A model generated the notes under the pieces. It was given only the letters and a program-made list of their open reading frames with translations. It searched no databases and was not told the origin of the DNA. From assembly GCA_000146465.1 (NCBI GenBank), contig CP001943.1: DNA of 64,000 nucleotides; one strand, given 5' to 3'. The position numbers and the translations under genes were made by a program. Positions 17,136-17,521 of this stretch are shown piece by piece; within the stretch, counting starts at the first letter, position 1, and the number at the start of each line of letters is the position of its first letter.

Positions 17136-17521
17136 TCACACCCCATAAATCTTGAAGTTCCCCTCGTATCCGTACCTCTTTATCATCTCCATCGTCACAT
17201 TATCAACCTCGACACTATCGACATCAAGAATCGACTCCTTTGGAATCACATTCTCCTTCCTTTCTCTCTCTTCTTCGTGGCTCTTGATGTAGACCTTGTT
17301 GTACGTTCCCTTCAAAATCTTCTTGTAAAGGGACGTGAGATATCCTGCAATCTCATTCTTCAGCTTCTTCGACTGCACAACAGCCACGTCTTGCACCACA
17401 AGCAGATTATGGTCAAACGTGTTGTCAAGCCTCTGGAAATACTTTTCTGCAATCGTTCGCGCTGCCCTCTTGACTATCTTGTTCCTAACACAGCCCTAAA
17501 ATTAAAGCTTCCACCTACCAT
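17136..17521 (-). CDS. RPS17: 40S ribosomal protein S17e, intron-containing. Exon 1 is the ATG alone at 17519..17521, and exon 2 is 17136..17495.
   Basis: Exon 2 encodes [30 protein letters not shown]…[12 protein letters not shown], which is eS17. An in-frame TAG lies immediately upstream. An ATG 26 nt further upstream is followed by GTAGGT…TTTAATTTTAG. The ATG is preceded by CAGAAAAAATTTTCACCCCAAGA. Confidence 0.8.
17496..17518 (-). other. Spliceosomal intron (23 nt) in RPS17, directly after the start codon
   Basis: Minus-sense sequence GTAGGTGGAAGCTTTAATTTTAG. It has a GT…AG frame, a TTAAT branch-like element and a TTTTAG 3' end. Splicing restores the eS17 N-terminus. Confidence 0.7.

Follow-up and report, generated by a model that had tools for sequence, protein, structure and literature searches.

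RPS17 of Encephalitozoon intestinalis very probably carries a 23-nt spliceosomal intron directly after its start codon

The gene for ribosomal protein eS17 (RPS17) lies on the minus strand of the 64-kb stretch of DNA that we analysed, referred to here as the window. Its reading frame begins at position 17495, 26 nt downstream from the A of an ATG, and opens with the codons GGC TGT GTT AGG AAC AAG. As the first-pass annotation had described, this frame contains no upstream ATG of its own and is bounded by an in-frame TAG. All elements of that description were present at the positions it gave. We found this TAG to be the last three bases of the proposed intron, with a TAA two codons before it. 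An unspliced reading from the ATG reaches a stop after 15 codons, whereas removal of the 23 nt that follow the ATG, which in the predicted transcript joins AUG directly to GGCUGUGUU, yields a 120-aa protein with the start MGCVRNK (Table 1). Within exon 2, the first in-frame ATG is found near residue 103 and the first start recognised by an ORF finder is a GTG at residue 34. Mechanical ORF finding gave an 87-aa GTG-started fragment (17136..17399) as the sole S17 product, which bears out the earlier claim that naive annotation shortens the gene; truncated gene calls of the same kind occur in Logan assemblies (P0003, P0005 and P0008-P0010).

Table 1. Features of the RPS17 gene in the window.
Feature	Coordinates	Strand	Basis or remark
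Initiator ATG, sole coding codon of exon 1	17521..17519	-	Sequence; invariant in ortholog alignment
23-nt phase-0 spliceosomal intron GTAGGTGGAAGCTTTAATTTTAG	17518..17496	-	Sequence, ortholog alignment, published motif expression
5' splice site GTAGGT	17518..17513	-	Inside the S17 intron
Branch-point block TTTAAT	17506..17501	-	Putative branch A at 17502
3' AG of the S17 intron	17497..17496	-	
Exon 2, eS17 codons 2-120 and TGA stop (17138..17136)	17495..17136	-	Profile, structure-chain and exact-protein matches
Promoter/start signal AAAAAATTTTCACCCCAAGA, AAATTT-like and CCC-like, directly 5' of the S17 ATG	17522..17541	-	
AATAAA polyadenylation signal	17115..17120	-	15 nt past the S17 stop codon

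To establish what the spliced reading encodes, we compared it with protein profiles, solved structures and deposited proteins. The product matched the Pfam family Ribosomal_S17e (PF00833) with E = 1.7e-36 and 125 bits against a cutoff of 22.8, and residues 1-112 aligned to profile positions 1-112, including the N-terminal MG(R/C)VR motif. It also aligned from residue 1 with the eS17 chains of solved ribosomes in the PDB, which supplies the comparison with homologues that had been proposed earlier; the best match was the E. cuniculi ribosome chain 7qep_C7, which likewise starts MGCVRNK. An exact-sequence look-up showed that the 120-aa product is identical to E. intestinalis ADM11071.1, so that both the restored M-G-C-V-R-N-K start and the assignment to a microsporidian-type genome held up. 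The neighbouring genes gave exact protein matches as well: L7A (ADM11069.1), the SEC11 signal peptidase (ADM11070.1), TFIIF-beta (ADM11072.1) and L9 (ADM11073.2). Proteins and gene order in this region agree with the deposited genome of Encephalitozoon intestinalis ATCC 50506, and the order L7A - SEC11 - S17 - TFIIF-beta - L9 is common to E. cuniculi, where it corresponds to ECU02_0750 to ECU02_0800 on chromosome 2 (PMC2803860 additional file 1). We conclude, with a probability of about 95%, that the locus is E. intestinalis RPS17, the ortholog of ECU02_0770, with a 23-nt U2-type GT-AG phase-0 intron right after its ATG.

This split gene model is already known, both deposited and published, and is not a discovery of the present analysis. 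Because the spliced product is exactly ADM11071.1, the deposited annotation must already hold the split gene, and the E. intestinalis annotation has carried it since the 2010 genome (PMC4355639). In E. cuniculi the split structure of the S17 ortholog has been annotated since 2001.

The interval 17496..17518 fits the published intron expression GTA[AG]GT[N]+?TAATT[N]{0,4}AG (PMC3486916), and it has the GT...AG ends, the GTA[AG]GT 5' site, the length and the position after ATG that characterise the class. Encephalitozoon ribosomal-protein introns are described as ~25 nt long, GT-AG and directly after the initiator ATG (PMC6349667), and the intron style recognised in the first-pass annotation is indeed this one. 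We then asked how often such motifs would be expected by chance in the window. The sequence TTAATTTTAG occurred twice against 0.19 expected. The published relaxed intron expression taken alone occurred twice against 0.89 expected in the window, which is not significant, but when it was anchored directly after ATG or ATGG the expected number fell to 0.015 and two matches were again found; none of 1000 dinucleotide shuffles gave as many. Both anchored matches are the starts of ribosomal-protein genes, S17 and S8, and in both the conserved N-terminus is restored. The earlier suggestion of scanning for the motif after ATG was made for the whole genome; we ran it on the 64-kb window, where it returned these two genes. 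Eight other matches to a relaxed scan (GT[AG]NGT...TAA[TC]...AG) were rejected: all lie within long ORFs, none follows an ATG and the branch block is present in none.

The second intron of this type lies in RPS8 (eS8; 28521..29074, minus strand). There, ATGG (29074..29071) is followed by a 32-nt phase-1 intron, GTAAGTGATCTCCGAAGGAAGATTAATTTTAG (29070..29039), and the spliced product of 173 aa, MGINHRGDHKRRK..., is an exact match to ADM11081.1. Ahead of the gene stands AAAAAATTTGCCCTGAA, which is the published E. cuniculi S8 signal. Elsewhere in the window, Rfam models identified tRNA genes at 28384..28455 (+) and 41688..41758 (-) and a U3 snoRNA (RF01848) at 38630..38813 (-), the latter at 57 bits, just above the gathering score.

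Directly upstream of the S17 ATG stands AAAAAATTTTCACCCCAAGA, a block of the AAATTT/CCC type published for ribosomal-protein genes; it is very nearly the same as the published E. cuniculi S17 signal, AAAATTTTTCACCCCAAGA (PMC2803860 Table 1), and is kept in all orthologous loci. Six sites in the window combine such a signal with an ATG (L7A, L9, an L35A-like gene, one further gene, S8 and S17), and among these only the ATG frames of S8 and S17 close within a few codons; both carry the intron motif. At 63127 (+), the AAATTT/CCC signal stands before the ATG of an ORF that starts MASIPKSNEVIFVKNYYSML. The signal also marks the deposited starts of two genes whose naive ORFs are over-extended at the 5' end: L7A (15765..16475, +) by 30 codons, with the deposited ATG at 15855, and L9 (18752..19369, +) by 22 codons, with the deposited ATG at 18818, each directly after the signal. 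We considered an intron at the L7A start at 15855, given the 27-nt in-frame intron predicted in E. cuniculi L7A and found unspliced by RACE (PMC2803860), and rejected it: no GTARGT/TAATT motif is present and the deposited E. intestinalis protein is genome-colinear. At the 3' end of S17, the polyadenylation signal has a counterpart in the E. cuniculi ortholog, for which AATAAA is listed at +16 (PMC2803860 additional file 1).

To examine how the intron and the surrounding codons have evolved, we collected orthologous loci from E. hellem (L001, L002), E. cuniculi (L004, L005), E. romaleae (L006), Ordospora colligata (L003), a second E. intestinalis strain (L007) and three Logan assemblies (L008, L009 and L010), a comparison of eight distinct taxa. 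An intron at the same position and with the same splice signals was found in E. cuniculi ECU02_0770, E. hellem, E. romaleae, O. colligata and the three Logan relatives. For E. hellem, E. cuniculi, E. romaleae and the second E. intestinalis strain, the deposited genes span 386-387 nt for a 120-aa S17, and an intron of 23 or 24 nt is therefore implied. In all eight taxa the ATG, GTARGTG and the promoter-like block are conserved, as is T(T/A)TAAY with the AG 4-5 nt behind it; the spacer that separates the 5' splice site from the branch block, by contrast, differs in length as well as in sequence. The 34 codons from 2 to 35, which precede the first ORF-finder start, vary at 29 of 34 third positions, 10 of 34 first positions and 3 of 34 second positions; pairwise, we counted 10-15 synonymous against 1-4 nonsynonymous codon differences. 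Judged by this substitution pattern, codons 2-35 are under purifying selection and evolve as coding sequence. Because change is biased towards third positions and synonymous differences, the segment must be translated in the eS17 frame, which lacks a start codon.

These observations bear on the main alternative, that the 23 nt, although intron-like, are a relic that always stays in the transcript, and that eS17 is made as an N-terminally truncated protein by initiation within exon 2, at an internal or non-ATG codon. Such a protein would have to forgo codons 2-35, which are strongly conserved as protein and align from residue 1 with the eS17 N-terminus of solved ribosomes, and its start would have to be found in an exon with no in-frame ATG before about residue 103. 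A relic would also be hard to reconcile with splice signals that are kept in eight taxa while the spacer drifts. RNA-seq in E. cuniculi was reported to confirm every annotated intron, for the most part at low levels (PMC3629993). Short start-adjacent introns of that species are poorly spliced, however, and a passage in PMC3749934 that cites PMC3629993 places the S17 intron among the least efficiently spliced, in <15% of transcripts. A spliced S17 transcript was not detected in the distant Spraguea lophii (PMC3749934), and the predicted L7A intron of E. cuniculi that proved unspliced by RACE likewise speaks for a relic. That most E. cuniculi S17 transcripts are reported unspliced and none spliced was detected in S. 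lophii counts against the splicing model. Our search of the literature for RNA-seq on splicing in E. intestinalis found nothing specific. Weighing this evidence together, we consider a permanently retained relic very unlikely.

The reported inefficiency also changes how transcript data should be read. The first-pass annotation held that cDNA colinear with the genome across the intron would overturn the split model, but this would not refute it: because so small a share of S17 transcripts is reported spliced in E. cuniculi in that passage, most S17 cDNA reads are expected to be genome-colinear. Transcripts from the upstream neighbour could add to the apparent retention. No AATAAA-like signal is present in the 49 nt that separate the stop of TFIIF-beta from the ATG of S17 (17522..17570, minus strand), and the E. 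cuniculi TFIIF-beta poly(A) signal is placed 86 nt beyond the stop, within S17 (PMC2803860 additional file 1); transcripts that read through may thus contain the S17 intron in their interior. We rejected such read-through as the source of the reported retention, since E. cuniculi expression of ECU02_0780 is ~184 FPKM against ~2610 FPKM for ECU02_0770, and a level of ~7% cannot explain >85% unspliced transcripts. TFIIF-beta read-through is thus a minor contributor to measured S17 intron retention.

We also considered whether the ATG could be linked to the eS17 frame by translational recoding, that is, by a frameshift or by stop-codon read-through, instead of by splicing. S17 introns measure 23, 24 or 26 nt (24 in E. 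romaleae, O. colligata, L008 and L010; 26 in L009). Because these lengths are not all equal modulo 3, the ATG does not stand in the same frame relative to the gene body in every species, and the 24-nt insert of E. romaleae, O. colligata and two Logan genomes does put the ATG in frame with the gene body. A recoding event would nonetheless have to differ by species: inserts of 23 and 26 nt would call for a frameshift, and the 24-nt insert for reading through one or two stop codons. The extra peptide that it would add (an MVGGSFNF extension in the window) is conserved in neither length nor sequence, and it would place residues before the conserved MG start that are absent from eS17 homologues. 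The unspliced reading meets a stop in every species compared, and only removal of the intron yields the conserved start M-G-(C/S)-(V/I)-(R/K)-N-K. We therefore give recoding almost no credence.

The O. colligata genome (GCA_052575955.1; L003:1501-1887) carries a deposited S17 model, P0002, of 114 aa, in which exon 1 is ATGGTAA and a 42-nt GTGAGG...GTAG interval is removed, so that the conserved residues GCVRNKV are lost. A 24-nt intron directly after the ATG, GTAAGTGAGGTATTTTAATTCTAG, gives instead 120 aa with the start MGCVRNKVVKR. The 114-aa model is probably an annotation error. Use of another 3' AG or 5' GT in a gene that is truly spliced, for which this automated model speaks, has almost no credence either: the model deletes conserved residues, and in the window splicing to the next downstream AG (17486..17485) would break the frame between the ATG and eS17.

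In the three Logan assemblies (L008, SRR29713750; L009, SRR21023573; L010, DRR353006), the loci are Encephalitozoon/Ordospora-like and S17 comes directly after TFIIF-beta in all three. In L008 alone, L7A and the downstream SEC11-like gene could be recognised. Their start-adjacent S17 introns measure 24, 26 and 24 nt, respectively, and automatic, prokaryote-style gene calls shorten the protein to 114, 93 and 87 aa.

Splicing of a 23-nt intron behind a single coding codon could proceed as follows. By extension from E. cuniculi, in which RACE placed 5' UTRs at <7 nt (PMC2803860), transcription would start a few bases 5' of the ATG, behind the AAATTT/CCC signal, leaving an mRNA exon 1 of only ~5-10 nt. 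The 5' end of Encephalitozoon U1 snRNA carries ACUUACC (PMC5499648), and this could form seven contiguous pairs with G|GUAGGU, six of them Watson-Crick and one G-U. U2 would recognise the UUUAAU block, by analogy with the published motif, and the second A of this block is the candidate branch point; 16 nt separate it from the 5' splice site and 4 nt from the AG. Excision would then join AUG to GGC, the sequence consequence of which is M-G-C-V-R-N-K. Unspliced mRNA could yield only a non-conserved 15-aa peptide, so that on this model S17 must be spliced for eS17 to be made, however low the efficiency reported for the sister species E. cuniculi. We rejected a function for that 15-aa peptide, as its length and sequence are not conserved across species.

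The start-adjacent position of the intron and its above-neutral conservation might reflect a second role, either as an inefficient splicing gate that limits eS17 output or as a downstream core-promoter DNA element. For the latter, a 5' UTR as short as in E. cuniculi would put the intron at about +6 to +33 relative to the start of transcription. We regard a second role of either kind as unlikely.

The practical value of these results is in quality control. The window can be recognised as Encephalitozoon, and genes of this kind are truncated or mis-spliced by generic or prokaryote-style callers. Introns this small and this close to the start call for annotation that takes account of the motif and for read mapping that takes account of the junction. 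Generic aligners overlook a 23-nt intron whose exon anchor is 10 nt or less; for E. cuniculi, custom references of spliced and unspliced junctions were used (PMC3629993).

Among known systems, the S17 intron most closely resembles the ultra-short introns of Encephalitozoon (Katinka 2001, Lee 2010; summaries in PMC6349667, PMC3629993 and PMC3486916), with which it shares the same ends and a TAATT 0-4 nt before the AG. It also shares their extreme 5' position and the premature stop that follows from retention, and we detected no feature in which it departs from them. Introns of E. cuniculi range from 22 to 76 nt (PMC3629993), and the 14 spliceosomal introns of E. intestinalis, detected manually and forming a set shared with E. 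cuniculi, from 23 to 47 bp (PMC4355639), so that the S17 intron stands at the short end of the latter range. The nearest counterpart is E. cuniculi RPS17 (ECU02_0770, CAD25107.1), with the same gene, synteny, intron position and AAATTT/CCC signal, and an intron one base off the 23 nt of the window (spacer GGGAGC in E. cuniculi, GGAAGC in the window). Annotated orthologues with the S17 intron are E. intestinalis ADM11071.1, which is the product of the window, and those of E. hellem and E. romaleae. Some microsporidia differ in that they are without it. None was flagged in three other species (PMC2803860), and a more distant microsporidian-like S17 from a JGI metagenome (3300073837; L011:601-975) is intronless, with the AAATTT/CCC signal directly 5' of ATG AGC ATA GTG... 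and the N-terminus MSIVGVNKVIGR. According to literature reports, S17 introns at the same position are present in Nosema ceranae, Trachipleistophora hominis and Spraguea lophii (PMC2803860 additional file 3, PMC3486916, PMC3749934). The comparison with these species suggests that the start-adjacent S17 intron is an old one in microsporidia.
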